NCBI GenBank assembly: GCA_043821365.1
Contig: JBDRCX010000006.1
Location: 40,840 to 104,839, forward strand
Direction: 5' to 3'
From: Candidatus Micrarchaeota archaeon
GTDB taxonomy: Archaea > Micrarchaeota > Micrarchaeia > Anstonellales > Bilamarchaeaceae
Length of the DNA: 64,000 nucleotides
Shown here: one piece after another, positions 31,626 to 51,609 of the stretch
Layout of the letters: every line of letters begins with the position of its first letter
How positions within the stretch are numbered: the stretch's first letter is position 1
Translations under genes and position numbers: made by a program
The notes under the pieces: model-generated
What the model was told of the DNA's origin: nothing
Databases searched by the model: none
What the model saw: only the letters and a program-made list of their open reading frames with translations

Positions 31626-31727
31626 ACGGCGTTCCGTTCAAGATAGTCAAAAAATTCCTATTTTTTGGCATGTACTTGAACGGCGTTCCGTTCAAGATAG
31701 TCAAAAAATTCCTATTTTTTGGCATGC
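31595..31727. repeat. 54-nt tandem direct repeat, about 2.4 copies, each containing a 9-bp-stem hairpin (cttgaacgg-cgtt-ccgttcaag)
   Basis: The unit is aaaaaattcctattttttggcatgtacttgaacggcgttccgttcaagatagtc, seen at 31595-31648, 31649-31702 and partially at 31703-31726. It lies between two convergent genes. The first copy supplies the stop region of 30909..31625 and the last partial copy supplies the C-terminal codons (HAKK) of the minus-strand TrmB gene. Confidence 0.6.
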
Positions 31728-34121: not shown

Positions 34122-35690
34122 ATGGATTTAGATATTTATAATCATTTAAACAAACAATGGAAATCAACATACAAAATTCTTCTTGGCCAAGAAGCAGATG
34201 AACTAATTGAGCATAAAGATTGGCTCTGTAGAGGTAATGGTCCAAGATTACTAAAAAAATCTTCTATTTCTGGAAAAGAAATTGTATATTCAAGTGATAA
34301 ATACTCTGATAATTCAAAATGGATAGGACATGATGAAGTGGGGGGGAAATTCGAACCATTGAATATGAATGAGATCAAAGATATTGATTCTATAATAGAG
34401 GCAGTAAGAGAAAGAATAACCTATTCTGGTAGTGTTGTTCTTGGAAACTCGAAATTTGTCAAAGGTAGTACAACCATTAGTGATTGTTTTTACATTTTGG
34501 ATTCAGAAAGAGTTGCATTTTCTAAAAATGTTGCGTACTCAACCAGAGGAGGGTACAGTGAGAACATATTCGGGTGTTATGGTTTCGGGCCAGTAACATT
34601 TGCAATAAAATCATATGGGATAACTGAATCAACCAGGATTTTTTTGACTTCAAAAGCAGATTTCTCTTCGGATATTTATTATTCGCATGGGATCTCAAAC
34701 TGTATGGAATGTATTTTTTCATTCAATATAAGAAGCAAAAGATATGCAATTGGAAATTTAGTTCTTCCAAAAGAAAAATATGCTTTGCTTAAAAAGAAAC
34801 TTCTTGCTGAGATTGCAGAAAAATTGAAAAAAGAAAAAACACTACCATCAATTGCTGAATTGATAAAGCATGAGGGAAATCCGATAGAATTGATAGATTT
34901 AGTTGGAACCACATCGAAAACTGAAAAGGAAGACAAACAAAGAATCGAAAAAGCATTTAAACAAACAACAGAGGTTTTGATTGGTAAACCATTGAATGGC
35001 ATAGATAAATATGCAACATGGATGAAACGTGAATCAAGTGTTTTATTGAAACCGGCAAACTCATGTATATCAGGAGAACCAATCACACTACCAGATTATG
35101 CAGGATTCATTGATTACCCGGATCAACGACTATTAACCCAAGAAGAAGCATACCGAGCAGGTGAAAAACTTGCCATTATAGAGGGAGAGGCACATAAATT
35201 ATCAATTGAAAACGCTTCTGTTATTCTTAGTAAAATAGCCTATTTCTGTCCGTTTTGGTTTGCAGGAAAACTTGAGAATAATATTGATTCACCATTGAAC
35301 ATTGATTCTAGAGATTGCTATAGTGGAATCTTATACATACGATCAAAATTATGTGCATTTTCTTTTAGCCCACGAAGTTGCGAATACTGTTTTGGTTCAA
35401 GAGAAGGAAGGCATGTTTCATTTTCCATAAATTCACATTTTTCTATGCGTGTAACCCGTTGTTTCGAAGTGGACCATTGCTCGGATTGCTCAGATTGCTA
35501 TTTTTGCCACAATTGCGAAAACGTTCAAGATTCAATGTTTTGTTTTAATGTAAAGAATTTGAGAAATGCAATTGGAAATACTCCAGTTGATCGCGGATTA
35601 TATCAACAAACAAAGACCAATTTGAGAGAGTGGTTAGCAGAAAAACTTGAACAGAAAAATAAGGTGGACTCAACTATTTTTTCACTCTAA
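34122..35690 (+). CDS. Cys-rich paralog family, fused N+C two-module protein (522 aa)
   Basis: N-module: WKSTYKILLGQEADELIEHKDWL, MNEIKDIDSIIEAV, CMECIFSFNIRSKRYAIGN. Linker KTLPSIAELI. C-module: IEKAFKQTTEVLIGKPLNGIDKYATWM, CFEVDHCSDCSDCYFCHNCENVQDSMFCFNVKNLRNAIGN. Confidence 0.55.
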   Translation: MDLDIYNHLNKQWKSTYKILLGQEADELIEHKDWLCRGNGPRLLKKSSISGKEIVYSSDKYSDNSKWIGHDEVGGKFEPLNMNEIKDIDSIIEAVRERITYSGSVVLGNSKFVKGSTTISDCFYILDSERVAFSKNVAYSTRGGYSENIFGCYGFGPVTFAIKSYGITESTRIFLTSKADFSSDIYYSHGISNCMECIFSFNIRSKRYAIGNLVLPKEKYALLKKKLLAEIAEKLKKEKTLPSIAELIKHEGNPIELIDLVGTTSKTEKEDKQRIEKAFKQTTEVLIGKPLNGIDKYATWMKRESSVLLKPANSCISGEPITLPDYAGFIDYPDQRLLTQEEAYRAGEKLAIIEGEAHKLSIENASVILSKIAYFCPFWFAGKLENNIDSPLNIDSRDCYSGILYIRSKLCAFSFSPRSCEYCFGSREGRHVSFSINSHFSMRVTRCFEVDHCSDCSDCYFCHNCENVQDSMFCFNVKNLRNAIGNTPVDRGLYQQTKTNLREWLAEKLEQKNKVDSTIFSL

Positions 35691-35739: not shown

Positions 35740-37383
35740 ATGGAAGGTAGCTACAATGAACTCAACAAAGAATGGAAAATAACATCACGACTCGTATTTG
35801 GAGGAGAAATAGGGGAACTCCAAGATTATAGAGACTGGCTCATTGAATTGAATAATCCTAGATTTACAAAAAACTCCTCAATTTCTGGTAAGGAAACTAT
35901 TTTCTCAAGTAGTGAATATGATGACCAGTCCAGATTTCTGGCTCTTGACGAAATTCCAGCAACACAATATTTTGAACCATTGAAAAATCATCAGATTTTT
36001 CAAAATTTGAACGGTAAACCGTTCAATCCTTTGAATATCAATGAGATCAAAGATATTGATTCCATAGTAGAAGCGATCCAAGAAAGAATCTATTATTGTG
36101 GGAATATAGTTTTAGGTAATTCGAAGTTTGTTGAGAAAAGTTCAAACATAACAAACAGTTTCTATGTTTATGATTCTGTAAAAATTAGTGATTGTAAAAA
36201 TATAGCATACTCACAGTATCTTCGCCTATGTGAAAATGTATTCGGAACAAATGAGGGTGGAGAATCAAAATATTGCATACGGTGTTGTATACTTTTCAAA
36301 AATGCAAGAAGTTTTGAGTTGTGGAAAAGTACTTGTTGCACAGATTGTTATTATTCATTTGGATTGAATGGGTGTAATGATGTTATTTTCTCATTTAACA
36401 TCCAGGGAAAGTCCAACGTAATAGGAAATCTTTCGCTTCCAAAAGACAAATACCGTGAGATAAAGAAAAAACTACTTGATGAAATGAGAGACGAACTTGT
36501 TAAGACTAAAAAACTACCATCACTCGTAGAGCTGACTATAAAAGAACCGGAAATCCCTGATGGCTATGGTTTGTGTGGACAGGATAAGGAAAAAAGCAGA
36601 AGTACAGTTGATAGTGCATTTAGCAAAACTTCTGAACTTTTGTTTGGTCAACAACTTCAAGGAAAGATGGAGGATTACGATGAATGGTTACGCTCACATA
36701 TAATTGTCCCATATTCTGTGAAATCAGTACTAAGCAAAAAAACAGTCCAACTTTCTCAATGGCCTGGTTTGGCTCAGTTGCCAAAAAACAGGATAGTAAC
36801 TTTGAATGAGGCTAGAGAACTAGCCAAACTTATGATAACAAATGAGCAAGCAGAAAGAATATCACTAACAAATGCATCAGATTACTTAACAAAAATAGCA
36901 TATTTCCCACCTGAAGAGATGACAGGAGAAAATACAAACTTAATTGAATGTCAATGGGGATCATCAGCAGCAAATTGCTATCGATCTGTGATATGTGTAT
37001 ATAGTAAAAACTGCGGTTATTGTTCCTGGCCACGAAGTTCGGAAAATTGTTTTGGCTGTGGAATTGTTTTTGACTCTAATTTTTCGATGAAATGCTATGA
37101 TTCAATTAAACTTTCCAGATGTTTTGAAGTAGATGCATCATCATCCTGTACTGACACGTACTTTGCACATAACTGTGAAAATGTACGAGACTCGATGTTT
37201 TGCTTCAATGTAAAGAATTTGAAAAATGCAATTGGAAATTGTCAACTCCAAACTGATCAGTATAAGAGTATAAAATCATCATTACAAGTGCAACTCCATA
37301 ATGGATTAGAATTAAAAAAATGTCTTGGTCTAAGTATTTTTAGTCTTAATAGAAATAAGCCACTTAAAGCATATCCCACATAA
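35740..37383 (+). CDS. Cys-rich paralog family, fused N+C two-module protein (about 547 aa)
   Basis: ATG at 35740 (MEGSYNELNKEWKITSRLVFGGEIGEL); the track ORF opens at TTG 35647. INEIKDIDSIVEAI, linker KKLPSLVEL, C-terminal CFEVDASSSCTDTYFAHNCENVRDSMFCFNVKNLKNAIGN. Confidence 0.55.
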   Translation: MEGSYNELNKEWKITSRLVFGGEIGELQDYRDWLIELNNPRFTKNSSISGKETIFSSSEYDDQSRFLALDEIPATQYFEPLKNHQIFQNLNGKPFNPLNINEIKDIDSIVEAIQERIYYCGNIVLGNSKFVEKSSNITNSFYVYDSVKISDCKNIAYSQYLRLCENVFGTNEGGESKYCIRCCILFKNARSFELWKSTCCTDCYYSFGLNGCNDVIFSFNIQGKSNVIGNLSLPKDKYREIKKKLLDEMRDELVKTKKLPSLVELTIKEPEIPDGYGLCGQDKEKSRSTVDSAFSKTSELLFGQQLQGKMEDYDEWLRSHIIVPYSVKSVLSKKTVQLSQWPGLAQLPKNRIVTLNEARELAKLMITNEQAERISLTNASDYLTKIAYFPPEEMTGENTNLIECQWGSSAANCYRSVICVYSKNCGYCSWPRSSENCFGCGIVFDSNFSMKCYDSIKLSRCFEVDASSSCTDTYFAHNCENVRDSMFCFNVKNLKNAIGNCQLQTDQYKSIKSSLQVQLHNGLELKKCLGLSIFSLNRNKPLKAYPT

Positions 37384-38316: not shown

Positions 38317-39909
38317 ATGGATAATCTGACTACTAACGAGCTTGAGAAGAAATGGAATAGCTCTTGCAAGCTAATCTTCAATCAAGAAATCGGAGATATG
38401 AACAGTTATGAACACTGGCTTACTGAACTTGTTGAACCTATTAATTATCACAAATCAAGCCTTTCTGGAAAAGACGTCATATCTGCACCAAACGGGTACT
38501 CTAAAGAATCAAAATGGCTTGCTTTCGATGAAGTTGATTTTAACAAGAAGTTCGAACCATTGAATATCAATGAAATTAAAGATATTGATTCATTAGTTCA
38601 AGCAATTTCAGAAAGATGGTACTACTCTGGAAACATATTTTTTGGGAATTCAGCATATATTGAAAAAAGCTCTAACATAAACGACAGTTTTTACATTTTC
38701 AAGAGTGCAAGATTCGGGAATTCAAAATATCTTGCCCATTGCACAATAGGAAGACAAAACCAGGAATGTTTTGGTTGTAATGTAATCAGTGAATCAAAAA
38801 ACTGTATTAAGTGTTATAGGTCTTTCCGTAATTCACGTTCATTTGAGCTTTGGATGAGCCAGAATTGCTCTGGATGTTACTACTCATTTGGATTGAATGG
38901 TTGTATTGATTGTATATTTTGCTTTAATGTTGAGAGCAGAAGACAATCCATAGGAAATCTAACGCTTGAACGTGATAAGTACATTAGCATAAAGAGTAAG
39001 TTACTAGAAGAAATAGCAGAAAAACTGCAAAAAGATCGTAGACTCATTTCCTTATTAGAGATAATTGACAAAGTTCCGCATAAAGGCCTTAGATTTAGTA
39101 ATAAAGATGGTATAAACGAACGAAATAATATAAATAAAAACAAAATTGAAAATGCATTTTCACAAACAACCAGCACATTATTTAGTAAAAAACTTGAAGG
39201 CATTGATGATTATTCAGATTATTTAAACAGACATATAAGAATAACAAAAAAATACTCATCAGCATTTAGTGGAGATGATCTTTTCATACCAGATTATGCA
39301 AATTATTCCAGATTACCTAAAGAAAGACTGCTTAGTTCAGGTGAGGCACACACTCATAGTAAGACGGTCCAGATAAAACCAAACGACCTAGAAAACCTAA
39401 ACTTAGACAATGTGCATGAAAAAATAGGTAGGATGTGTTTTTTCAATGCTGAGATGTTTGAAGGCACGAATTTGAATATGATTGAATGTGCAGTATCTGT
39501 TGATTCAGCAGATTGTTATCGGAGTTCAGTAACAGAATACTCGAAACACTGCGGGTATTCATTCTGGCCAAGAAGTTCCCAGTATCTGTTTGGTTGTGAT
39601 TCGCCTTTTGATTCAAGTTTTTGTATTAACTGTTATTCATGCACTTCACTTATACGATGTTTTGAAGTAGACTGTAGCGGCTACTGTTCAGATCTTTATT
39701 TTGGGCATAATTGCGAAAACGTTAGAGATAGCATGTTTTGTTTTAATGTCAAAAATCTCAGAAATGCAATTGGGAATGTACCACTACAATCTGATTCTTA
39801 CAAAAAAATCAAAGTAATGCTTCAGAACCAGATTCATGATGAATTACAATCAAAAAAATTCTTAGAATGGGATATTTACTCCCTGAATAGAGGTGGCAGA
39901 CATGGCTAA
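38317..39909 (+). CDS. Cys-rich paralog family, fused N+C two-module protein (530 aa)
   Basis: LEKKWNSSCKLIFNQEIGDM, INEIKDIDSLVQAI, linker RRLISLLEII, C-terminal CFEVDCSGYCSDLYFGHNCENVRDSMFCFNVKNLRNAIGN. The stop overlaps the next ORF start (ATGGCTAA). Confidence 0.55.
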   Translation: MDNLTTNELEKKWNSSCKLIFNQEIGDMNSYEHWLTELVEPINYHKSSLSGKDVISAPNGYSKESKWLAFDEVDFNKKFEPLNINEIKDIDSLVQAISERWYYSGNIFFGNSAYIEKSSNINDSFYIFKSARFGNSKYLAHCTIGRQNQECFGCNVISESKNCIKCYRSFRNSRSFELWMSQNCSGCYYSFGLNGCIDCIFCFNVESRRQSIGNLTLERDKYISIKSKLLEEIAEKLQKDRRLISLLEIIDKVPHKGLRFSNKDGINERNNINKNKIENAFSQTTSTLFSKKLEGIDDYSDYLNRHIRITKKYSSAFSGDDLFIPDYANYSRLPKERLLSSGEAHTHSKTVQIKPNDLENLNLDNVHEKIGRMCFFNAEMFEGTNLNMIECAVSVDSADCYRSSVTEYSKHCGYSFWPRSSQYLFGCDSPFDSSFCINCYSCTSLIRCFEVDCSGYCSDLYFGHNCENVRDSMFCFNVKNLRNAIGNVPLQSDSYKKIKVMLQNQIHDELQSKKFLEWDIYSLNRGGRHG

Positions 39910-40135
39910 ACAGTTATCGTCTTCATGCATACGACAACAGGATAAATATGCTGAAAGAGCAAGTTTACAAATGGGAAAGAAAACTTGGGAAACAAATAAA
40001 CAGCCAGTTTTGGACCTTATCTTTTCGATGAGTTTTTGGGTACCTTTTTCCAAAAAAGGTACAAAACCGCTCTACAGCGGCACTAGAGATATATATTTCA
40101 AAAAAGAGATAGTTGGTGTGGGAATATGGAAGTAA
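39902..40135 (+). CDS. Small hypothetical protein (77 aa) bridging the paralog gene and the HerA-like ATPase
   Basis: ATG at 39902 with GAGGTGG 7 nt upstream. It overlaps the upstream stop in the same ATGNNTAA pattern used by the split paralog pairs, and overlaps the ATPase start by 10 nt. It contains a hydrophobic segment VLDLIFSMSFWVPF. Confidence 0.3.
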   Translation: MAKQLSSSCIRQQDKYAERASLQMGKKTWETNKQPVLDLIFSMSFWVPFSKKGTKPLYSGTRDIYFKKEIVGVGIWK

Positions 40136-42270
40136 GAGAAATACACCTCTACTCGGAAAAAGTAGAGGATAATGATGTTAAGAATCTGTTCAACCAGGTT
40201 ACCAAATCTAGGTTTCCACTATTTGGACTGATAGATCTGTCTAATATTTTCTCTCCTAATGCCCTTACGCTAGTAGTTAAAAGGAATATAAATACAGTAA
40301 AATTCTATGCAAAGGAAAAAGATTGCCTCCAGAATATCTCTCCACTAATTTTTCCATACAGAATGTGTGATCCAAGCTTGCTGAAGCTTTCTGGGGGCTC
40401 TTATTTCCCTTTTCCAAGAATGTACATCATCAATGGTGCAACCCATGATCTGCTTGACTTTATACTAAAAGAAAAGATAGAACAAATGACATTAAACGTA
40501 ACAAAAGTCATGGGACAGTTCATTGCAAACGGAACAGTAGTATGTGAAAATGGACAAAAAGGGATGTTCACTGTGCTAGCACCTCAAAAATTCCTTACGA
40601 TTAATCTTGAGAAAAACCCATCAATTTACATTGAACTCCTTGAGCCATTGCCAAAACAAATATATGTAAGCTCAAAATTCCCTGTTTTTGAAGAAACCGG
40701 AATTACTATGGGTGTGGATAACTACGACCCATTACAACACACAATAATAGCAGGAACTTCTGGTTCAGGAAAAAGTAAAGGGCTTTTTGTGTTGTTAAAA
40801 GCATTAGAAGCAAAGTACAAAGACGGTGCACGGGTGGTTGTGGTTGACCCACATGGGGAATTTGCAAGACTGTTCCCTCATGCCAAAGTTATAGATTTCA
40901 TAAAAAATTATGTTGAGCCACTAGACGTAGGAAAAGATAAATCCCCAATGCTGACCCAGTTGGTCTCACAATTAATTACCTCTTCGATAGGGCAAGAAAA
41001 CAAATATTCAGAACGTGTATTGTTTTATACTGTTCACCTTCTCTCATCAATCAATAAACTTGACCTTAACAATATAAGCCTACTTTTAACAGACTCATCA
41101 GTAAAGGCAGAATATGTCAGCATGTGTGATAATGATGAGGTAAAAAGATTCTTTGATGAAGAATACAATGACATACACATCCACCATTTCAACAATGCTA
41201 TTCTTCCAATTTTGAACTTTATTGGGGAGTACCAATTGTATTTAGGAAAGGAGAAAAAACGAGAGGGGCTTTTGGAATCCATCCAACAGAACAGAATAAC
41301 TGTAGTTGCATTTGACCCCAAATTCTTCGGAAGAAGAATGATTAGTTTCCTTGCTGGAGCAGTTATCAATCAGATGTATATTCTAGCAATTACAGGAAAA
41401 CTCCAAGAAAAACCAACTGTTTTGGTTGTTGATGAATTCCCAAGAGTGGAAACAAGAGTAACCAAGGACATTCTTTCAGAAACAAGAAAATTCAATTTAT
41501 TCGCATACCTATCATGCCAGTATTTGGGCCAGCTGAGCAAAGAAGTTCTTGATTCAATTGTATCAAATGCAAGAAACATAATTGCATTTAAGATAAATAA
41601 ACAAGATGCTGCAATGCTCAGCTCAATCATGGAAATAAAGGTCGAGGAATACTTCAAAAAGAGCAGAGCAACAACTGAACTTGAAGAGTCTAAAAAAGAG
41701 ATGTTTGTACGTTTACACCAGAGAGAGTGCATTGTCAGATTATTTGATGGTGTCAAATATCTTTTACCAATGAAACTAAAGATTGTTGATGCAAAAAAGT
41801 GGGGGCTGAGAGAAGGGACAGTACCTTACGTTGAAAGAGATCCACCACCAGAGGCACCAGGAGTGCCAAGATCAAAACCAATGACAAATGCATTCCAAGG
41901 ACAAGAACCTCAAGAAAGCGAAAAACCACAAATGACACCAGCAGGACCATTACCAAGAATGTCTGTTTCGCAACAGCAGGGAATACCAGGAGCACCACCA
42001 ATTGACAATGACACTGGACTGTATTGTGTAGCTGAAGAAGGAGAAACACCACCAGAAGAAGAAAAAGAAGAGAAACCAGCATTACCAGAACCAATGACTG
42101 AGAGTCCATGGTTGCAAGAAACACCAGATGCGATATACCAATTGGAAAAAGCAAAACTTAATGGTGTTATAAAAGATATGCCAAAACAACCTAAAGAAAC
42201 AGAAGATACAGATAAAAAACCAGAAGAGAAAAAACACAAAAAATCAAAAAAACCTAAGAAGAAAGAGTGA
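40126..42270 (+). CDS. HerA/FtsK-superfamily (DUF87-type) ATPase with an N-terminal unknown domain and a Pro/Glu/Lys-rich disordered C-terminal tail (714 aa)
   Basis: Walker A IIAGTSGSGKSKG is followed by the HerA-typical VVVDPHGEF. Walker B is VLVVDEFPRV. The C-terminal roughly 160 aa are low-complexity (PPPEAPGVP...EEEKEEKPALPEP...KKHKKSKKPKKKE). It sits where the two paralog arrays converge. Confidence 0.6.
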   Translation: MEVREIHLYSEKVEDNDVKNLFNQVTKSRFPLFGLIDLSNIFSPNALTLVVKRNINTVKFYAKEKDCLQNISPLIFPYRMCDPSLLKLSGGSYFPFPRMYIINGATHDLLDFILKEKIEQMTLNVTKVMGQFIANGTVVCENGQKGMFTVLAPQKFLTINLEKNPSIYIELLEPLPKQIYVSSKFPVFEETGITMGVDNYDPLQHTIIAGTSGSGKSKGLFVLLKALEAKYKDGARVVVVDPHGEFARLFPHAKVIDFIKNYVEPLDVGKDKSPMLTQLVSQLITSSIGQENKYSERVLFYTVHLLSSINKLDLNNISLLLTDSSVKAEYVSMCDNDEVKRFFDEEYNDIHIHHFNNAILPILNFIGEYQLYLGKEKKREGLLESIQQNRITVVAFDPKFFGRRMISFLAGAVINQMYILAITGKLQEKPTVLVVDEFPRVETRVTKDILSETRKFNLFAYLSCQYLGQLSKEVLDSIVSNARNIIAFKINKQDAAMLSSIMEIKVEEYFKKSRATTELEESKKEMFVRLHQRECIVRLFDGVKYLLPMKLKIVDAKKWGLREGTVPYVERDPPPEAPGVPRSKPMTNAFQGQEPQESEKPQMTPAGPLPRMSVSQQQGIPGAPPIDNDTGLYCVAEEGETPPEEEKEEKPALPEPMTESPWLQETPDAIYQLEKAKLNGVIKDMPKQPKETEDTDKKPEEKKHKKSKKPKKKE

Positions 42271-43828
42271 ACACGCTCCACTTCAAACTTTTATTATTTT
42301 CTAGTTTTTGGTTTATTTCATCTAAAACCATTTTTTTAATTTTAAGATACCTCTCTTTACCAACCTCAACATTGCCTATAGCGTACCGTTTATTCTTTAG
42401 ATTAAAACAGAACAGACAATTCGACAAACTTTCGCAGTTATGGCAGAATAATGAATCTGAGCAATCCCTGCAATTATCCATTTCAAAACATCTTGATAAT
42501 TTTTGAGAATGATAACAATTGATACAGAAATTAGAATCGAAAATAGTATCAAATCCAAAGCAATTATTGGAATCCTTGGGCCACATACCACAAGCACAGT
42601 ATTTTGACCTCACTACGGCAGATGCCTTGTAACAATGTGCTGCTCCAACAGTGACCGTAGACTCGATAAAATTCTCAACTTTGCCCTCTCTAATATCAAC
42701 AGTAAAATAGGATATTTTTCCAATATTTTCATGTGCATTTTCCAAACTTAATTTTTCGACTTCGTCTAGGTTAAATTTCACAGACTCGCCAATCTGTCTA
42801 GCCTCACCCATTGTAACAACAATATCCTCTGGGAGGGCCTCAAGTGCAATAACATAGGGTAGCATAAGTAGTCTTTTTCCACTGATGGCAGATTTTCTTT
42901 CCTCTATTTTATGTGCATGCCTATAGAGCCAATCATGATACTCGTCGATATCCTTTAGTCTTTTTCCAAAAATTACTGCCGATGTATTTGTAAATGCATT
43001 TTCAACTATTTCCTTATTTTCAGAATATTTTTCTTCATCAAGTGGAGGTAAATTTGGCTTTTGTAATTTGCCTTTTTTAACAATATCAAGCAAAGAAGGC
43101 AATGATTTGTTCTTTTTTAGTTCATCAACCATTTGTTCACAGAGGGATTTTTTTATTGAGAAATATTTTTCTTTGTCGATTTCCAGATTCCCTATGCAGT
43201 ATCTTTTATTTTTTAAGTGGAAAGAAAAAAGACAGTTGGAACAACCAGTTAGGTTTGATACATAATAACAATCTGAACAGTTCTGAGCAGACCAAATTTC
43301 AAACGAACGTTTAACAGAAAATGTCTGAGTACAACGAATACAGAATTCTGTTTCTCCTGGGCCATGGACTCCAAAACAATTGTTGCTATCCCTACCAACA
43401 GTGCAGTAAGCAAGATATTTTGAATTTATAAATTGGGCTGAATCAGTTACATAAAAACAATCAGTAAGATTACAACTTCTTTCTACATGGCTTGAGTTAC
43501 CAAGAACAGTATTACCACAGTAATAAGCCCTATCCGAAACCGCTTGTATAAGAGAATCAATATCTTTAATTTCGTTAATATCCAATGGTTCGAACTTCTT
43601 GTTAAAATCAACTTCATCGAAACTTATCCACTTGGAATTTGGATAATACTCCTTTATTGAAAATGCAACTTCTTTCCCAGATAGGGTTGATTTTCTGATT
43701 AGGTTTGAATCGATAAGACCAGAAAGCCATTTTGAATATTCTTCAAGCTCACCAATCTCTTCGCCAAATAATAGTTTTGTAGTTTTTTTCCATGATTGAT
43801 TCAGTATATTATACGTTTCTGATGACAT
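42254..43828 (-). CDS. Cys-rich paralog family, fused N+C two-module protein (524 aa)
   Basis: WKKTTKLLFGEEIGELEEYSKWL, INEIKDIDSLIQAV, linker KSLPSLLDIV, C-terminal CFEMDNCRDCSDSLFCHNCESLSNCLFCFNLKNKRYAIGN. The 3' end overlaps the convergent ATPase gene by 17 nt. Confidence 0.55.
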   Translation of the reverse strand: MSSETYNILNQSWKKTTKLLFGEEIGELEEYSKWLSGLIDSNLIRKSTLSGKEVAFSIKEYYPNSKWISFDEVDFNKKFEPLDINEIKDIDSLIQAVSDRAYYCGNTVLGNSSHVERSCNLTDCFYVTDSAQFINSKYLAYCTVGRDSNNCFGVHGPGETEFCIRCTQTFSVKRSFEIWSAQNCSDCYYVSNLTGCSNCLFSFHLKNKRYCIGNLEIDKEKYFSIKKSLCEQMVDELKKNKSLPSLLDIVKKGKLQKPNLPPLDEEKYSENKEIVENAFTNTSAVIFGKRLKDIDEYHDWLYRHAHKIEERKSAISGKRLLMLPYVIALEALPEDIVVTMGEARQIGESVKFNLDEVEKLSLENAHENIGKISYFTVDIREGKVENFIESTVTVGAAHCYKASAVVRSKYCACGMWPKDSNNCFGFDTIFDSNFCINCYHSQKLSRCFEMDNCRDCSDSLFCHNCESLSNCLFCFNLKNKRYAIGNVEVGKERYLKIKKMVLDEINQKLENNKSLKWSVFTLSS

Positions 43829-43829
43829 G

Positions 43830-44594
43830 CTATTTTTTACCCCCCAAATTGTAGATGTTCAGAACAAGCTTTTTTTCATTTTCTATTTTTTCTGCAATTT
43901 CACTCACAATCATTTTCTTTATTCTAAGGTACTCCTCCTTTCCAACTTCCACATTCATTATAGCATATCTAAGCGATTTTGCATTAAAACAGAACATACA
44001 ATTGTTCAAATTCTCGCAGTTATGGCAAAAGTAGCAATCAGTACAGTTGCTACAATCGCTTAATTCAAAGCACCTTGCTAGTTTTACGGAATTATAACAT
44101 TTGATAGAAAAATTTGAAGCAAATAAAAAGTGGGAACCAAAACAATATTCTGATTCTCTTGGCCAAAAACAGTAAGCATCACATTTTGAATAGATATACC
44201 AGACTCCATCTAAACAATGTTGGGCATGCATACAGGTGGATGTTTTTTGAAGGTCTTGATTCTGGCCAAGCATGACATCAGAAGTTACATAGTTTATTTC
44301 TTGTAATTTTTCTGAGGCATTAGATAGGGTTAATGTCTTTGCACCATGTTCTGAGATTTGTTTTTTACCAAGTTCAAGTGATTCTTCTAAAGTAACAAGA
44401 TTCTTTTTTATGGAATTGAAGAAGAGGATATCTGGCACGTAGACAATCTTGTCACTTACCTGGGATTTGGTATGGAGTGCTTTGTTTACATTTTCTAAAA
44501 GCCAATTTCGATAGCTTTCCAAATTAGTCAATTTTCTACCGAAAATAATTGAAGTGGTTTCCTGAAAGGCTTTTTCAATTTCCAAATTACCCAT
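43830..44594 (-). CDS. Cys-rich paralog family, C-module-only protein (about 254 aa)
   Basis: MGNLEIEKAFQETTSIIFGRKL...CFELSDCSNCTDCYFCHNCENLNNCMFCFNAKSLRYAIMN. ATG at 44594. Its start overlaps the upstream N-module stop as ATGGGTAA. Confidence 0.5.
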   Translation of the reverse strand: MGNLEIEKAFQETTSIIFGRKLTNLESYRNWLLENVNKALHTKSQVSDKIVYVPDILFFNSIKKNLVTLEESLELGKKQISEHGAKTLTLSNASEKLQEINYVTSDVMLGQNQDLQKTSTCMHAQHCLDGVWYIYSKCDAYCFWPRESEYCFGSHFLFASNFSIKCYNSVKLARCFELSDCSNCTDCYFCHNCENLNNCMFCFNAKSLRYAIMNVEVGKEEYLRIKKMIVSEIAEKIENEKKLVLNIYNLGGKK

Positions 44595-45357
44595 GCACAT
44601 CACCGTTAATTATATCTATCAATGATGGAAGTTTCTTTCTTGCTTTCAGAATCTCACGCATTTCACCAATGAGTTTTTCCTTTAATTTATGGTATTCTTC
44701 AGGACTAAATTGGTGGTTTCCGATCATATAACTTTTATTTCTTTGATTGAAAGAAAACATACAATTGGTGCAATTTTCCAGACTTCCTGTAAAATAACAA
44801 TCTGATGCAACATAGTTTCTGATGGTTTCCAAGCATCGGACATTTTTGTAGGTTTCAAAGGTTTTGATATTAAACTTACTCCCTTCACCAATTGCATTAC
44901 CACCAAAGATGTACTCTGCAAATCTTAGAACTGATGAGTATGCGACAAATTTACAATCATAAACATCTTGGGTTTTATAAATAAATGAGGAATTGATGCA
45001 CCTATTAGAGACCTGAACTTCACGGGAGTTACCAAGAACAACATTACCAATATAATATGCTTTTTCATTAACAGCTTCAATAATGGAATCAATATCTTTG
45101 ATTTTGTTTATATCATATTTTTGCTTGCCAATTGTGTTCATATATTGATCAATTTCATCAAGGCTTAGGAATTTGGCCCCTGGAGCAACTTTTTCAGATG
45201 ATACAATAACTTCTTTCCCAGATAAGGCGGATTTTTTCATACCAAATGGATCAACATATCTTAGAAGCCATGTCTCGTATTCACCAAGGTTGCCAAGTTC
45301 TTCTCCAAATAGCACCTTGGATGTTTTTTTCCATGCAACATTAATATCAGAATTCAT
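44587..45357 (-). CDS. Cys-rich paralog family, N-module-only protein (256 aa)
   Basis: WKKTSKVLFGEELGNLGEYETWL, INKIKDIDSIIEAV, CTNCMFSFNQRNKSYMIGN. It ends at the linker KKLPSLIDIINGDVHG. Confidence 0.5.
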   Translation of the reverse strand: MNSDINVAWKKTSKVLFGEELGNLGEYETWLLRYVDPFGMKKSALSGKEVIVSSEKVAPGAKFLSLDEIDQYMNTIGKQKYDINKIKDIDSIIEAVNEKAYYIGNVVLGNSREVQVSNRCINSSFIYKTQDVYDCKFVAYSSVLRFAEYIFGGNAIGEGSKFNIKTFETYKNVRCLETIRNYVASDCYFTGSLENCTNCMFSFNQRNKSYMIGNHQFSPEEYHKLKEKLIGEMREILKARKKLPSLIDIINGDVHG

Positions 45358-46127
45358 TATTGCTGCCCCACATTAAAAATATTCAAACTAAGTCGTTTGT
45401 CTTTTTCTAGTTTTTTTGTAAGTTCTTCAAGAACTTTTTGTTTTATTTCGAGGTATTTTTCTTTACCGACTTCGATATTGGCAATTGCGTACCTCTTTGC
45501 TTTTACATTAAAACAAAACATGCAGTTATTCAGATTTTCACAATTATGACAGAACAGTGAATCAGTACAATTGCTACAGTCACTCATTTCAAAGCAACGA
45601 TTAAGGTTTTCAGAATTGTAACACTTGATACAGAATTGAGAGGAAAAAGTGTAGAAAGTACCAATATTGTAATCTGATTGCCTTGGCCAAAAACAATAGA
45701 AACAATATTTGGAACGGACAAGAGCAACACACTTGTAACTATAATGAGATGAATAGTAAAAATCACAATCAATAAGATTGCTGCACTCACCATAGCGAGT
45801 ATTTGGAGTGGTGGTGGATAATTTTGCCAAAAGATTTTTAGCAGTGGAAAAGGTTAGTTGGTTTAGTTCATCATCAGAAAGATGGTTTTTTCCGTGGGTA
45901 AAATAGGCTTCTTCTATGGTAAGTATGTTGTGTTTTATGTCTCGATAAAAATCAAATGGTGGAAGGTATATTTTTTCACCACTAATAAGTGATTTGCCAT
46001 ATTCATTCGTTGATACATTTTCAGTTAGCCAATCTTCATAATCTTTGAAATTACAAAGTTTTTTGCCTAGAACAATCGAAGTAATGGTCTGAAAAGATTT
46101 TTCAAGATCAGATTCTAGTTTATCCAT
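45357..46127 (-). CDS. Cys-rich paralog family, C-module-only protein (about 256 aa)
   Basis: ATG at 46127 (MDKLESDLEKSFQTITSIVLGKKL...). CFEMSDCSNCTDSLFCHNCENLNNCMFCFNVKAKRYAIAN. The stop overlaps the next N-module ATG (TAATG). Confidence 0.5.
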   Translation of the reverse strand: MDKLESDLEKSFQTITSIVLGKKLCNFKDYEDWLTENVSTNEYGKSLISGEKIYLPPFDFYRDIKHNILTIEEAYFTHGKNHLSDDELNQLTFSTAKNLLAKLSTTTPNTRYGECSNLIDCDFYYSSHYSYKCVALVRSKYCFYCFWPRQSDYNIGTFYTFSSQFCIKCYNSENLNRCFEMSDCSNCTDSLFCHNCENLNNCMFCFNVKAKRYAIANIEVGKEKYLEIKQKVLEELTKKLEKDKRLSLNIFNVGQQ

Positions 46128-46908
46128 TCCAATCACCTTTCCCACTTATTATCTCTATTATCGAGGGAAGTTTCTTCTTTCTTTTAAGTTCATCGGCAAA
46201 TTCACCAACTAATTTTGATTTCAGTTCAGCATATTTATCTTTAGTCAGCTGTATATTGCCAATTAGATAGTTCTTATTTCTTTGATTAAATGAAAAGATA
46301 CAGTTGGTACAGTCCTCAAGACTTGCAGAATAGAAACTATCAGATGCAACATTACAATGATAGGTTTCCAAGCACCGGAGTTGTTTGTGCGGATCAAGGA
46401 CTTTTATACAGAACTGAATCTCTCCACCAAAACAACAACCAAATGAGTACTCTGGACTGCGAATAGAAGTTGTATATGCAACGTATTTTCCATCATAAAC
46501 ATCCTGGCAACCCATGGCATAAACAGTATTAACGCAACGGTGTGAGTTTATCACATTGGTTGAATGTCCCAAAACAATATTTCCAGCATAACAGACTTTT
46601 TCTTTAGCTGCATGAATAATTGAATCAACATCTTTGATATCATTGATATTGAAGGGCATTGAAAACATTCTTTTTTCGTATTCATGCATTTCCTCATGAC
46701 CTATCACTGGTGCTTGTTTTGGCACCCTATTGGATGAGATTGTAACATCATTGCCACTTAGAATGGATTTTCTTTTTACGATTGGGTCAGTATATGTTTT
46801 TAGATAATTTGTAAATTCTGATAGTTCACCAACTTCTTGACCAAGCAGAACCTTACAAGTGGATTTCCAAGATTTATTTAATTGATTAATAATCATAGCA
46901 TCAGACAT
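46120..46908 (-). CDS. Cys-rich paralog family, N-module-only protein (about 262 aa)
   Basis: ATG at 46908 (MSDAMIINQLNKSWKSTCKVLLGQEVGEL). INDIKDVDSIIHAA, CTNCIFSFNQRNKNYLIGN, linker KKLPSIIEIISGKGDWNG. Its stop/start overlap with the next gene is ATGGATAA. Confidence 0.5.
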   Translation of the reverse strand: MSDAMIINQLNKSWKSTCKVLLGQEVGELSEFTNYLKTYTDPIVKRKSILSGNDVTISSNRVPKQAPVIGHEEMHEYEKRMFSMPFNINDIKDVDSIIHAAKEKVCYAGNIVLGHSTNVINSHRCVNTVYAMGCQDVYDGKYVAYTTSIRSPEYSFGCCFGGEIQFCIKVLDPHKQLRCLETYHCNVASDSFYSASLEDCTNCIFSFNQRNKNYLIGNIQLTKDKYAELKSKLVGEFADELKRKKKLPSIIEIISGKGDWNG

Positions 46909-47689
46909 TAGGATCACCTTTTCCTATTGAATAAATGTCAAAATTTACGGTTTTAGTTTTTGATAATTGATCGTTAATATGAGTAAGTAGAATTTTTTTC
47001 ACACGCATATATTCTTCACGGCCAACTTCTATGTTTCCTATCGCATAGCGCTTATTTTTCACATTAAAGCAAAACATGCAGTCGTTCAGACCTTCTGAAT
47101 TATGACAGAATAGAATATCGCTTGAATGATAGCAACCATCAACTTCGAATGACCGGATAACTTTAACTGAATTGTAAGCATGAATGCAGAATTGGGAATA
47201 GGGAGTATTATGGCAACCAAACATATTCTGAGAATACATTGGATAGTTGGAATATGCCACGTTTTTTATGCCGCCATAAAGGTCGTCACCGTAGTATAGA
47301 TACATGCCATCCCCTGCACCACTGCATTTTTCAATGTTTGAAAATGTCTTCCATCTGAAATTACCGATGGCATAGGCAACTGGTTTTACAATCCTGTTTA
47401 CCATGTCTTTTATGTCAGAATCCTTTATCTCATCATAAATGAATTTAGTATGATTTACTTTGTCCATTTCTTCCATGGAAATAGATCTTTTGCTTGAAAT
47501 TTTTCTCCCCATAAAATTTAGAGTTGGGAAGTTCCAAACCTCAACATCACTAACTGCAGATTTAGCTGGATGGGGGAGTGGAACATATTTACCAAGCCAG
47601 GGACCATAATCATCAATACCAACTAGTGGTTTGCCAAGTAAAAGGTTAGATGTACTAGAAAATTCCTTTTCTAATTCAGGCCAGACCAT
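46901..47689 (-). CDS. Cys-rich paralog family, C-module-only protein (about 262 aa)
   Basis: ATG at 47689 (MVWPELEKEFSSTSNLLLGKPL). CMFCFNVKNKRYAIGNIEVGREEYMRVKKIL. The overlap with the upstream N-module stop is ATGTCTGA. Confidence 0.5.
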   Translation of the reverse strand: MVWPELEKEFSSTSNLLLGKPLVGIDDYGPWLGKYVPLPHPAKSAVSDVEVWNFPTLNFMGRKISSKRSISMEEMDKVNHTKFIYDEIKDSDIKDMVNRIVKPVAYAIGNFRWKTFSNIEKCSGAGDGMYLYYGDDLYGGIKNVAYSNYPMYSQNMFGCHNTPYSQFCIHAYNSVKVIRSFEVDGCYHSSDILFCHNSEGLNDCMFCFNVKNKRYAIGNIEVGREEYMRVKKILLTHINDQLSKTKTVNFDIYSIGKGDPNV

Positions 47690-47690
47690 A

Positions 47691-48467
47691 TTAGGCACCC
47701 TCCCCCAGAATATCCATTATGGACATTATTCTCTTTCTTTTTTTCAAATCCTCAGCCATTTCGCCTATTAATTTTGCCCTCAACGGGGCATATTGTTCTT
47801 TTGTGAGTTGTACATTGCCGACCATATTTCGTTTTGCACGTACATTGAAAGTGAAAAGGCAATCAGATGAACCAGTAACATTATGGCAGAAATAACAATC
47901 AGAACTACTTACAGTAAGACTGCACTCAAAACAGCGTTTGAGAGAATTGTTATAGAGGCATCTTATGAGCATGGAACTGTCACCGCTTGAAGTTGATGCA
48001 AAACAATATTCGTTATTCCGTAGCATGTAGCAGTATGCAACATATTTTCCATTGACAATCATTGATGAATCAAGAACATAATTGCTGTCAGTTATGTTAT
48101 CTGAATTTTTCACAAATTTCGAGTTTCCGAGAACTTTGTTGCCACTGTAAATGAATTTTTCTTCTACTGCATCAAAGAGAGAATCAACATCCTTGATTCG
48201 GTTTACATCAATTGGCTTGGACAGAATAGATGCACTTTGGATTTCTTTATTGTAATCAAAAAATCTGGCTTTTGGAGGATAATGTTTTGACGTGACAAAT
48301 AGGTCTTTGCCAGATATTATTGATTTTACTGATTTGCCAACCAATGGTTCTTTTAGATAGTCAGAATAATCAGACATCACGCTAAGTGGTTCCCCAAATA
48401 GGACTTTGGTAGTTTGCTTCCAAGCATTATCCATAATTGTCTCTATGCCATTAGTTTCGAATGCCAT
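47691..48467 (-). CDS. Cys-rich paralog family, N-module-only protein (about 258 aa)
   Basis: ATG at 48467 (MAFETNGIETIMDNAWKQTTKVLFGEPL); the track ORF begins at GTG 48506. VNRIKDVDSLFDAV, CLFTFNVRAKRNMVGN, linker KRIMSIMDILGEGA. Confidence 0.5.
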   Translation of the reverse strand: MAFETNGIETIMDNAWKQTTKVLFGEPLSVMSDYSDYLKEPLVGKSVKSIISGKDLFVTSKHYPPKARFFDYNKEIQSASILSKPIDVNRIKDVDSLFDAVEEKFIYSGNKVLGNSKFVKNSDNITDSNYVLDSSMIVNGKYVAYCYMLRNNEYCFASTSSGDSSMLIRCLYNNSLKRCFECSLTVSSSDCYFCHNVTGSSDCLFTFNVRAKRNMVGNVQLTKEQYAPLRAKLIGEMAEDLKKRKRIMSIMDILGEGA

Positions 48468-50047
48468 AATTTTGACCCTCTTCCACCTAAATTGAAAATG
48501 CTCCACGGAATGCTCTTTCTTTTTTCAAGATCATCAACGATCTGAGCAAGAACAGTGGATTTAATTGATTTGAACTTATCCTGTGGCAACACTCCATTGC
48601 CAATTGCAAACCGTAAATTTTTTGCATTAAAACAAAACATACTATCTCGTACATTTTCGCAATTGTGTGCAAAGTAAATATCTGAACAGTTATTTGATGC
48701 ATCCACCTCAAATGCTCTTGAGAGATTCATGGAATAATATGTGTGAATACAGAAATTCGAAGTAAATGAAAGACCACAACCATAGACATATTTTGAATGC
48801 CTAGGCCAATAGGAAAAGGCAACATTTTCATTGAATGATGCAATTGGACAGTAATAACAATTTACAGAAGTATTGCAAAGTGGAACCATGATTAAATTTT
48901 TTGTTTCTCCCAATTGACCTTCTGGATTGAAATAAGCAATTTTACCGATTGATTTTTTCAAGCTAGACAATGACTCTATATCTTCTCCATCAAGTTGCAG
49001 ATTTTCTCCTAATGCCCAATTTTCCCATTGGGTAACTAATCGATCACGAGAATAAAGGTGGAATGGTGAAGTTTCACCAAGATAAACTGGTTTTCCGGTT
49101 GCCGAAGATTTTTCTTCACTTATATATGGCACATGACTTAGCAACCAGCCCTTATAATTATCAATTTGTGAAAGGGGGTTGTTGAATAAAAGAGATGTTG
49201 TTTTTTGAAAACCTAATTCAATAGGTCCTTTATTTTTTTGTTCTTTATCATCAGAAGGATTGAAATTTTTTGGAACAGGAAGTGCATCACAACTTTTTGA
49301 TGCAATTTCCATCAATGATGGAAGTTTTTTCTTTATCTCAAGCTCAATCTTAAGATCTTCAATAAGTTTTTCTTTTAAAGAAAGATATTTTTCTTTTGTC
49401 AATTGGATATTTCCTATGACATTTCTTTTGTTTTTTAGATTAAATGAAAAAAGAACATCCTGTGAACCCTGGACACATGAACTGAAATAACAATCACTTG
49501 AATCATAACATTTCCATGCTTCAAGACATCGTGATTGTTTGTGGGTTTCAAATGCCCTTACTGTTGAGGTTGTAAAAGCATCACTAACAACACCAAAAAG
49601 ATATTTGCTACCCCGGCAATATGAACAATATGCCATATATTCTGAATCATAGATAAAATTGGAATTGTAAACATAGAACGAGTTTTGTACATCTGAACTT
49701 TTTTCAACATGTTTGGAATTTCCAAGAACAACATTACCGCAATAGTAAACTCTTTCTTCCAAAGCTTCAATGATAGAATCGATATCTTTGATCTCATTTA
49801 TATTCAATGGTTCGAATTTTTGGCCATAATCAATTTCATCAAGTGAAATAAATTTGGCATTGTCTTCATAATCAGATACGGCACAGTACACTTCTTTATT
49901 TGATTTTGCTGATTTTTTATTTTTTAGAGGAACACAACCTTCTGAAAGCCATTCGGAATAGTTATCAATATCACCTACCTCTGCACCTAAGAGCACTTTC
50001 ATAGTAGATTTCCAAGACTTGTTTATTGATTCACGAACCTCGGTCAT
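48443..50047 (-). CDS. Cys-rich paralog family, fused N+C two-module protein (534 aa)
   Basis: INKSWKSTMKVLLGAEVGDIDNYSEWL, INEIKDIDSIIEAL, linker KKLPSLMEIA, C-terminal AFEVDASNNCSDIYFAHNCENVRDSMFCFNAKNLRFAIGN. Its ATG overlaps the upstream stop (ATGA). Confidence 0.55.
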   Translation of the reverse strand: MTEVRESINKSWKSTMKVLLGAEVGDIDNYSEWLSEGCVPLKNKKSAKSNKEVYCAVSDYEDNAKFISLDEIDYGQKFEPLNINEIKDIDSIIEALEERVYYCGNVVLGNSKHVEKSSDVQNSFYVYNSNFIYDSEYMAYCSYCRGSKYLFGVVSDAFTTSTVRAFETHKQSRCLEAWKCYDSSDCYFSSCVQGSQDVLFSFNLKNKRNVIGNIQLTKEKYLSLKEKLIEDLKIELEIKKKLPSLMEIASKSCDALPVPKNFNPSDDKEQKNKGPIELGFQKTTSLLFNNPLSQIDNYKGWLLSHVPYISEEKSSATGKPVYLGETSPFHLYSRDRLVTQWENWALGENLQLDGEDIESLSSLKKSIGKIAYFNPEGQLGETKNLIMVPLCNTSVNCYYCPIASFNENVAFSYWPRHSKYVYGCGLSFTSNFCIHTYYSMNLSRAFEVDASNNCSDIYFAHNCENVRDSMFCFNAKNLRFAIGNGVLPQDKFKSIKSTVLAQIVDDLEKRKSIPWSIFNLGGRGSKLWHSKLMA

Positions 50048-51609
50048 TTCATCCCTCCGATGGTAAAAATATTAAATCGAAGATTTTTCTTGTCAAGTAT
50101 TTCTGAACTTAGTTGCTCAGTGATAGATTCTTTTATTTTGGAATAATCTGCTTGTGGGATGGTCGTATTCCCAATTGCATGCCTCTTGCCTTTTACATTA
50201 AAACAGAACATACTGTCACTTAGACCCTCAGAATTATGACAGAAAAATGAATCAGAACATTTGTTCGACGTGTCTACTTCTAGACAACGGCTAAGATATA
50301 GTGAATTATGACAATTGATACAGAACTCGGAATTCATATTACGGTAGCCACCAAAAATATACTTTGAACTAAATGCTGATGATATGACACCAAGATTTTC
50401 ACTTTGGACTATGTCAAAGCCTTTGTAGACATTGTTCGTATAGTAAACTAATGGTGACTGAATGATATTACTATTTACACCATCCAAAATTTCAACTGAA
50501 AAATAGGCAATTTCAGCGAGATTTGAAATGATTGAATCTACTGAATTGATTTTTGATGGATCCAGAGTGAGTTTACTAAGTTCCAACCCTTCCCCTAAAG
50601 TAACTAGAAGTTCTTTTGGAAAAAGAGAAAGGGCATATAGATCTGGATGAAGAGGGAGATAGGTTGTTCTTCCAAACATTGTTTTTATTGAATCCATCTT
50701 TATTTTTTCAGATGAAAGCCAAGACTCATAATTTTTTATTGTTCCAGGATCTTTTTTCAGAATAATTTTGAATGTTGATGTAAAACTCCTCTCAATTACT
50801 TGCATATCGCCTGTATCTGGTTTTTTTGGTGTGGAAAGAACTGGTCGTTTTGGTATTTTTCCCTTTCTTACTAGATCAAATAATGAAGGGTATTTTTTAT
50901 TCTTTTTCAGATCATGAACAACTTCGGATATAAGCTTCTTTTTCAATTCTAGATATTTGTCCCTAGTAAGTTGAAGATTTCCAATTCTATACTTTTTATT
51001 TCTTTGGAAAAATGAAAACAAAAGCTCACTAGAATTGACGCATTGATTAGAAAAATAGATATCAGTACAATCACCGAGAATTTGACTTTCAAAAATACGC
51101 TTGCAATGAAACCCACCATAGAACTTTATTGTAAATTCTGTTTTTCCGAACCACCCTGAACCAAAAATATGTTTACTGTTAAGACGAACTAAAGATGAAT
51201 GGAAAACGTTAGTAGATTGGGAGATATTCAGAGAATTGGCAACATAATTTGAATCCATTACAAGATCTGAAGATTCAACGAACTTGGAATTACCTAGAAT
51301 TCTGTTGCCTGTGTATGTCCATTCTTCAGAAACTGCCCTTGTAATTGAATCAATGTCTTTGATATCATTTATTGACAGTGGTTTTGATTCTTTTATTTCA
51401 TCTGCAGAAATAACTTTTGCCAATTTAGAATAATCTGATGCAAGTACCACATCTTTACCAGAAATTGCGGATTTTGAAACTTGAGGTTTTGGACAGTACT
51501 CCTTCAACCACTCTTCATAATCCCTAAGCTCACCTAGCTCTTCTCCAAGAAGAATCTTGCATGTTGATGACCAGGATTTGTTAAGTGATGAATAAAGCTC
51601 GGAATTCAT
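50044..51609 (-). CDS. Cys-rich paralog family, fused N+C two-module protein, most divergent member (521 aa)
   Basis: LNKSWSSTCKILLGEELGELRDYEEWL, INDIKDIDSITRAV, linker KKYPSLFDLV, C-terminal CLEVDTSNKCSDSFFCHNSEGLSDSMFCFNVKGKRHAIGN. First paralog of the minus-strand array. Confidence 0.55.
   Translation of the reverse strand: MNSELYSSLNKSWSSTCKILLGEELGELRDYEEWLKEYCPKPQVSKSAISGKDVVLASDYSKLAKVISADEIKESKPLSINDIKDIDSITRAVSEEWTYTGNRILGNSKFVESSDLVMDSNYVANSLNISQSTNVFHSSLVRLNSKHIFGSGWFGKTEFTIKFYGGFHCKRIFESQILGDCTDIYFSNQCVNSSELLFSFFQRNKKYRIGNLQLTRDKYLELKKKLISEVVHDLKKNKKYPSLFDLVRKGKIPKRPVLSTPKKPDTGDMQVIERSFTSTFKIILKKDPGTIKNYESWLSSEKIKMDSIKTMFGRTTYLPLHPDLYALSLFPKELLVTLGEGLELSKLTLDPSKINSVDSIISNLAEIAYFSVEILDGVNSNIIQSPLVYYTNNVYKGFDIVQSENLGVISSAFSSKYIFGGYRNMNSEFCINCHNSLYLSRCLEVDTSNKCSDSFFCHNSEGLSDSMFCFNVKGKRHAIGNTTIPQADYSKIKESITEQLSSEILDKKNLRFNIFTIGGMK

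Follow-up and report, generated by a model that had tools for sequence, protein, structure and literature searches.

Fused and split versions of a two-module, cysteine-rich protein family in a gene cluster of Candidatus Micrarchaeota

Fused and split genes in the cluster

We analysed a 64-kb window (the whole stretch of DNA under study) of a metagenome-assembled genome (MAG) of Candidatus Micrarchaeota (DPANN archaea), in which 14 open reading frames (ORFs) of one cysteine-rich protein family lie at ~30.1–51.6 kb. The unit of the family is a single module of ~250 amino acids (aa). Six ORFs are fused genes (F1–F6; ~520–545 aa) that carry an N module followed by a C module, and eight are single-module genes (~240–265 aa) that form four N/C pairs (S1–S4, with the N- and C-module genes denoted, for example, S1N and S1C), giving a density of 10 two-module units in ~22 kb (30100–51650; Table 1). 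These ORF coordinates confirm the six fused members and four gene pairs described in the original prediction from this DNA. Nine of the genes lie head to tail in a minus-strand operon, in the order F6 > F5 > S4N > S4C > S3N > S3C > S2N > S2C > F4. The F4 protein is 100% identical to NCBI ABH842_02620, and an NCBI record for the S2C protein (254 aa) starts at the same ATG as our gene.

The N and C modules of the window were aligned, and the N and C hidden Markov models (HMMs) were applied to stop-to-stop ORFs. Split N genes span positions 1–254 of the N-HMM and split C genes positions 2–253 of the C-HMM, and the fused genes hold both in the same order; the split genes are therefore consecutive, non-overlapping parts of the composite. 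The N and C modules are also full-length paralogues of each other: profiles of the 10 N and 10 C window modules aligned over 235 columns in hhalign (probability 100%, E = 1.3e-52, 23% identity). In a joint tree of 370 modules the two types were reciprocally monophyletic in 40/40 bootstraps, and the N/C duplication is older than all diversification sampled. Two proteins, P0363 (532 aa) and P0366 (435 aa), have their best C-type profile match in the N-terminal half (residues 8–248 and 7–241, respectively) and may differ from the others in how their modules are ordered or composed.

In the window alignment, all four N genes end 4–9 residues past the position of the motif ...KKLPS(L/I)xxI, and the C genes start 1–7 residues ahead of an (I/L)ExxF motif. 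The original prediction had placed the break directly after a conserved linker, KKLPSL(I/V)(E/D)I; the constant break position holds, but only S2 and S3 among the four N genes have KKLPS literally (S1 has KKTAPGHMDL and S4 has KRKRIMSIMDI), and the motif represents the end of the N module, not a linker. The true linker of the fused proteins lies between these two points (median, 21 aa; 5–95% range, 16–32 aa) and is missing from the split pairs, in which the tail and head that take its place have a median length of 4 aa. With the linker gone, the split pairs are therefore not frameshifted fused genes.

Conservation and phylogeny of the split state

The operon is found in the same form in another genus. 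Candidatus Bilamarchaeum dharawalense, the F4 orthologue of which shares 79% identity, has an orthologous operon in which radical S-adenosylmethionine (SAM) and HTH_10 genes are followed by genes of 521, 534, 257, 263, 262, 257, 256, 255 and 521 aa, that is, in the gene order of the window (two fused, six split, one fused). Junction distances are equal in the two genomes at 5/8 junctions, and the +1 gap between S4N and S4C and the 25-nucleotide (nt) overlap of F5 and S4N are both present in Bilamarchaeum. Outside the operon, F2 shares 76–78% identity with a Bilamarchaeum gene (locus L002, 15709–17367). Across the two genomes, the proportion of non-synonymous differences (pN) is 0.10–0.11 in 6/6 split genes (0.103 in S2C) and 0.09–0.13 in their fused neighbours, with a saturated proportion of synonymous differences (pS) of 0.66–0.89; pN and pS are given instead of dN/dS because synonymous sites are saturated in most pairs. 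Low pN together with saturated pS indicates that the split genes are functional, under purifying selection and kept split over a long divergence.

One genome per GTDB species was scanned by pattern, which gave 77 loci from 45 Micrarchaeota genomes; together with the window these make 78 sequences. Scanning their stop-to-stop ORFs with the HMMs identified 164 N+C, 41 N-only and 36 C-only ORFs, and after removal of ORFs cut by contig ends the complete units numbered 154 fused genes and 31 split pairs (30 clean pairs and one apparent recent frameshift, at locus L020). No complete N-only ORF in the 78 sequences lacks a C-only ORF directly downstream on the same strand, and 30/31 complete pairs have two intact modules and a C gene with a start codon of its own. 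Clean split pairs occur in at least 15 of the 45 genomes. A database search with S2C recovered ~110 stand-alone homologues of ~255 aa from independent assemblies (the best 120 hits were almost all stand-alone, 246–293 aa), and a profile search of 1.84 billion cluster representatives matched 1,470 clusters at E ≤ 1e-3, of which 307 had E ≤ 1e-30, with both ~525-aa and ~255-aa forms among them. The family thus numbers about 1,470 clusters at 50% identity and appears to be restricted to Micrarchaeota, to which nearly all named matches belong.

Neighbour-joining trees were built from the N modules, the C modules and both concatenated. The N-only and C-only trees each recovered the same four split clades that hold the window pairs, with high bootstrap support (N/C/concatenated): S1 (window and L010), 94/100/100%; S4 (eight genomes), 92/98/100%; S2 (three genomes), 100/100/100%; and S3 (seven genomes), 98/92/98%. 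The partner of S1N in its clade is L010 5125–5928 (bootstrap 94–100%). As the N and C trees are congruent, the N and C genes of a pair were inherited together. Monophyly of all split pairs was recovered in 0% of bootstraps of the neighbour-joining trees; the trees have very short deep branches, and about seven changes between the fused and split states are needed under Fitch parsimony. A few old events, after which whole pairs were inherited and duplicated in tandem, account for the recurrence of the split state. The argument of the original prediction that random frameshifts would not recur at one position therefore overstates the recurrence, given that pairs were inherited as pairs in a few old lineages; furthermore, only breaks at the domain boundary would survive selection anyway. 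The comparison with related genomes that it had proposed does find the split state maintained, as the same split layout in the Bilamarchaeum operon and as split clades in 2–8 genomes.

Junctions and translation signals

The N-to-C junctions of the window have distances of −4, −8, −8 and +1 nt. All junction strings of the original prediction are present in the window, including the ATGNNTRA-type overlap (ATGGCTAA) that joins F3 to a small downstream ORF, but two of the junctions said to separate N from C (45357 and 46908) are C-to-N junctions between successive pairs, and the ATGNNTRA overlap claimed for every break holds for two of the four within-pair junctions, the others being ATGA and a 1-nt gap. 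Tight junctions run through the whole operon and are not specific to the N-to-C break, as 8/8 junctions of the nine-gene minus-strand operon fall within −25 to +1 nt.

Across loci, the distances at 30 scored N-to-C junctions were −8 (n = 11), +1 (n = 7), −14, −11, −4 and +7 (n = 2 each) and −1, +4, +5 and +13 (n = 1 each); 29/30 thus lie between −14 and +7, a stop/start spacing that fits a coupled pair. The remaining 85 family junctions are mostly at −4 (38/85). In Haloferax volcanii and Escherichia coli, overlapping genes are most often spaced at −4, −1 and −8, no phase-1 overlap can be shorter than −8, and subunits of heteromeric complexes are 4.5- to 8-fold over-represented among gene pairs at −8 to +10 nt (Huber et al. 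2023, PMC10666635). Because −8 is among the commonest overlaps there, the ATGNNTRA junction is, by analogy, ordinary termination–reinitiation coupling geometry.

Ribosome-binding motifs are enriched inside the coding sequences upstream of the C genes. A 5-mer of the anti-16S motif GGAGGTGATC occurs 3–16 nt upstream of 47% of C starts, compared with 32% of other family starts and 3% of internal ATGs, and 4-mers of this motif are found at 73% of C starts versus 16% of control ATGs. The tail of S2N (...PSLIDIINGDVHG) spells GGTGAT 4 nt upstream of the S2C ATG and that of S3N (...GKGDWNG) also spells GGTGAT, such that S2 and S3 share a tail design of G-D-x-(N/H)-G-stop; GGAGGGTG lies upstream of the S4C ATG. 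More generally, 10/10 window family genes that are coupled to a gene downstream encode a Gly-rich C-terminal tail (GG, GxG or GDxxG; for example, ...GKGDWNG*, ...NGDVHG*, ...GEGA*, ...LGGKK* and ...IGGMK*; Table 1), the codons of which spell a Shine–Dalgarno-like GGTGA/GGAGG motif, compared with 0/4 genes without a coupled downstream gene (F1, ...IFSL*; F2, ...KAYPT*; F4, ...TLSS*; S1C, ...FLACT*). The translation signal of the following gene thus seems to have shaped the protein tails.

Conserved residues, predicted fold and annotation

An AlphaFold2 model of F4 (113-sequence alignment) has a predicted local distance difference test score (pLDDT) of 88.8 and a predicted template modelling score (pTM) of 0.87. 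In this model each module consists of N-terminal helices, very short period-3 strands through the Cys-rich region and a long C-terminal helix, and the high pTM implies that the N module would be fixed in its arrangement relative to the C module. Invariant or nearly invariant residues of the C module (F4 numbering) are R446, E449, D451, H463, N464, E466, F475, N476, K478, G485 and N486, which give the signature R-x-x-E-x-D ... H-N-x-E ... F-C-F-N-x-K, with period-3 cysteines. The N module keeps only the R/E/D and F-x-F...G-N positions, which suggests that a more constrained C module is paired with a more degenerate N module. The N-termini of the family carry no hydrophobic leader, as judged by eye and without a prediction tool, and the proteins are probably cytoplasmic.

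No relatives of the family were found in Pfam, NCBIfam, PADLOC or PHROGs, a sequence-profile search of the PDB with the family returned nothing, and a literature search for a described Cys-rich family of Micrarchaeota found nothing relevant. A match of F4 residues 158–264, in the Cys-rich N module, to the NCBIfam model of TRM1 (tRNA methyltransferase; E = 2.4e-5, 24 bits compared with a cut-off of 281 bits) is probably a coincidence of cysteine pattern and was rejected. In Foldseek searches of the PDB with the two-module and single-module models, only left-handed β-helix (LbH) proteins recurred, without significance (E ≥ 0.04, template modelling score ≤ 0.25). The predicted fold weakly resembles that of LbH hexapeptide-repeat proteins (γ-carbonic anhydrase, LpxD and PglD) in its short-rung β-solenoid with a period-3 C-x-x-C-x-x repeat, but differs in having no Pfam Hexapep match, in having cysteine ladders instead of an aliphatic ladder, and in being modelled as a pseudo-dimer with flanking helices, not a homotrimer.

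Interpretation of the split pairs

The split pairs are probably two-subunit forms of a pseudo-dimeric protein that are passed on as such, with translational coupling keeping the amounts of the two subunits matched. An ancient duplication would have given rise to N and C module types that work jointly as a pseudo-dimer. In most copies both modules would be held on one chain by the ~21-residue linker, whereas in a few old lineages they would be encoded by separate adjacent genes without it. The ribosome that finishes N would restart at the C ATG, which lies within −14 to +13 nt (mostly at the 8-nt overlap or the 1-nt gap), aided by the Shine–Dalgarno-like GGTGA/GGAGG in the Gly-rich tail of the upstream gene; this would match the output of N to that of C, and the two should form the same two-module particle that the fused protein forms. 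The break would be constant in position because a cut at the module boundary is the only one that leaves two foldable halves. We infer from this that N and C subunits physically associate and that their translation is coupled. Selected two-subunit versions were also the first of two readings offered by the original prediction, and this reading is strengthened by the conserved split state in the orthologous operon of another genus, the purifying selection on the split genes (pN/pS), the split clades common to up to eight genomes and the Shine–Dalgarno-like motifs upstream of the C starts. The structural models also speak for it: besides the high pTM of fused F4, S2C modelled alone (110 sequences) has a pLDDT of 86, its Cys-rich region scores 64–73 and loses its strands, and the equivalent region of F4 scores 76–93, which is suggestive of a Cys-rich core that would need the partner module, although the comparison is between different proteins and different alignments.

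Several points weigh against this interpretation. The binding of N to C is a deduction, and the coupling is read from the geometry of the junctions. Trees with such short deep branches do not fix the direction or number of the fission and fusion events. With paralogue rooting, the S4 clade is basal in the N subtree and in the C subtree, hinting at a split ancestor, and we do not rely on this because bootstrap support was only 8/40 and 17/40 (20–43%). Lastly, the C gene is in the +1 frame relative to N in 26/31 pairs, which we attribute to shared descent in clades B and C, although functional constraint may also play a part.

The stand-alone N and C proteins might instead act independently, that is, alone, as homo-oligomers or with modules of other paralogues, with the tight spacing a feature of a compact DPANN operon. 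Tight junctions are indeed equally common between units (C-to-N and fused-to-fused junctions are mostly at −4), 5/23 same-strand gaps between unrelated genes of the window fall within −8 to +10 nt, and the weakly similar β-solenoid proteins, the LbH enzymes, are homotrimers. We nevertheless consider independence unlikely: a complete N-only gene never occurs without a C-only gene directly downstream, nor the reverse, the N and C trees are congruent in every split clade, 154 units hold the N-then-C order on one chain, and the fused F4 model has a high pTM. Less likely still is a more elaborate scenario in which split subunits mix and match across pairs and fused paralogues, generating combinatorial diversity of a cytoplasmic complex tied to the HerA-like ATPase and regulators of the cluster (see below), with the family representing an undescribed, Micrarchaeota-restricted β-solenoid fold with cysteine ladders.

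The second reading of the original prediction, in which the overlap serves as a reusable +1/−1 frameshift or read-through site and one locus yields separate N and C proteins plus a fused N–C product, is highly improbable. The pairs do resemble prfB-type +1 sites in that a Shine–Dalgarno-like element lies a few nucleotides upstream of the in-frame stop and most pairs have their downstream frame at +1, and three pairs end in GGG-TRA, for which +1 re-pairing to GGT is conceivable. However, none of the 31 pairs is in frame (26 are at +1 and 5 at +2), which excludes read-through, and the S4 clade (clade A) contains both frames (+1 in five pairs, +2 in three); the +1 bias is best explained by descent, as clades B and C are uniformly +1. 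The motif is also not conserved among orthologues. Twenty codon/stop combinations occur at the last sense codon and differ between orthologues (the last codon and stop of S2N are GGG TAA in the window compared with GGA TGA in L002 and L050), and no conserved slippery site was found at the N/C overlaps, either among the 31 pairs or among orthologues. An X XXY YYZ heptamer is present in only one clean pair, where it points in the wrong direction, and in the apparent frameshift copy L020. Both frames are open over only 1–35 nt in 26/31 pairs, a shifted product would have a linker of ~4 aa compared with 16–32 aa in natural fusions, and each C gene has its own ATG and Shine–Dalgarno-like motif.

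An origin of the split pairs in frameshifts introduced by sequencing or assembly, or in recent pseudogenization of fused genes, can be dismissed with near certainty: MAG assemblies do contain such errors, and three copies in related loci (L058 2351/2535, L068 560/1346 and L020 13988) are probably sequencing frameshifts or young pseudogenes, but these contrast with the clean pairs in that the break falls inside the N module (L058 2351–3998 and L068 560–2281) or the linker is kept and there is no start codon (L020 13989–15538, counted among the 31 pairs), whereas the window pairs show the same split in independently assembled genomes of other genera, evolve under strong purifying selection, lack the linker and possess an ATG and Shine–Dalgarno-like signals of their own.

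Table 1. Family genes, junctions and neighbouring features of the window
Feature	Position	Strand	Remarks
S1N, N-module gene	30175..30912	+	245 aa; N-module HMM match at positions 8–254; Gly-rich tail
S1C, C-module gene	30909..31625	+	238 aa; GGGGGT 7 nt upstream of start
F1, fused N+C	34122..35690	+	522 aa
F2, fused N+C	35740..37383	+	Likely ATG at 35740; open frame from 35647
F3, fused N+C	38317..39909	+	530 aa; Gly-rich tail ...NRGGRHG; 8-nt overlap with next ORF
F4, fused N+C	42254..43828	−	524 aa; last gene of minus-strand operon; no Gly-rich tail
S2C, C-module gene	43830..44594	−	254 aa; Gly-rich tail
S2N, N-module gene	44587..45357	−	256 aa; Gly-rich tail
S3C, C-module gene	45357..46127	−	256 aa; Gly-rich tail
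S3N, N-module gene	46120..46908	−	262 aa; Gly-rich tail
S4C, C-module gene	46901..47689	−	262 aa; Gly-rich tail
S4N, N-module gene	47691..48467	−	258 aa from ATG at 48467; Gly-rich tail
F5, fused N+C	48443..50047	−	534 aa; Gly-rich tail
F6, fused N+C	50044..51609	−	521 aa; first gene of minus-strand operon; Gly-rich tail
S1N to S1C, within pair	30909	+	ATGA
S4N to S4C, within pair	47693/47689	−	TAA-T-ATG, 1-nt gap
S3N to S3C, within pair	46127	−	8-nt overlap ATGGATAA
S2N to S2C, within pair	44594	−	8-nt overlap ATGGGTAA
S4C to S3N, between units	46908	−	Stop/start ATGTCTGA
S3C to S2N, between units	45357	−	Stop/start TAATG
S2C to F4, between units		−	TAG-C-ATG
F6 to F5, between units	50044	−	ATGA overlap
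F5 to S4N, between units		−	25-nt overlap
Small ORF	39902..40135	+	77 aa; ATGGCTAA overlap with F3; overlaps start of HerA-like ATPase gene; no family match
HerA/FtsK/VirD4-like ATPase, non-family	40126..42270	+	714 aa; Pfam DUF87 (1.2e-10) and TrwB_AAD_bind (9.7e-9); PADLOC HerA and mad8
TrmB-family (3) and HTH_10 (2) regulators	31712–32470, 33260–34027, 37364–38101 (−); 32607–33263 (+); 51697–52413 (−)
PALP enzyme	28542–30062	−	Threonine-synthase/cysteine-synthase-like

Neighbouring genes

Genes of other kinds are scattered through the cluster. Five encode transcription regulators (three TrmB-family, two HTH_10), and further ones encode a PALP enzyme, a radical-SAM-like protein and a HerA/VirD4-like ATPase. 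Synteny with Bilamarchaeum includes the HTH_10 and radical-SAM-like genes that lie upstream of the minus-strand operon. The HerA-like ATPase, the best PADLOC match of which is mad8 (7.8e-11), has a low-complexity C-terminal tail of ~150 aa rich in Pro, Glu and Lys, and is conserved beside a family gene in Bilamarchaeum. The C-terminal ~30 residues (PFSKKGTKPLYSGTRDIYFKKEIVGVGIWK) of the small ORF that follows F3 are likewise conserved in Bilamarchaeum (L002 15545–15712, minus strand), where the copy instead follows the F2 orthologue with an ATGA overlap. The PALP protein has a C-terminal extension of ~180 aa with a hydrophobic stretch, YASIILATAAVVSLVVWAYM, that is probably membrane-spanning; Bilamarchaeum has two PALP genes in the same neighbourhood.

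Relation to known systems

Gene fission and fusion yield 'Rosetta stone' pairs, which include the split protein genes of Nanoarchaeum equitans and other reduced archaea. As in such pairs, what is one composite gene in some copies is represented by two neighbouring genes in others, the division falls at a domain boundary, and both states are functional and heritable. The present case is unlike them in that both states coexist as paralogues in one operon, in which three split pairs are flanked by three fused genes, and in that the two halves are paralogous to each other.

The junctions also resemble those of coupled overlapping gene pairs (Huber et al. 2019, PMC6728339; 2023, PMC10666635), which are co-directional, spaced at −8 to +10 nt with ATGA, TAATG and 8-nt overlaps, have a Shine–Dalgarno-like motif inside the upstream gene and typically encode subunits of one complex. 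Here, −8 and +1 dominate within split pairs instead of the usual −4, which we attribute to inheritance in a few clades, and the coupling is predicted from the sequence geometry.

The observation is explained by known processes, namely domain-boundary fission and fusion, after which the split versions have persisted as two-subunit forms with probable translational coupling. Mechanistically there is little new here: with the suggested recoding site removed, what is left is a clean and unusually well-replicated case of domain-boundary fission and fusion with probable termination–reinitiation coupling. That the N and C modules would act as a unit is a useful constraint for solving or modelling the protein. 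The family itself, an uncharacterized, lineage-restricted and heavily expanded part of DPANN biology, is a more interesting loose end than the mechanism.

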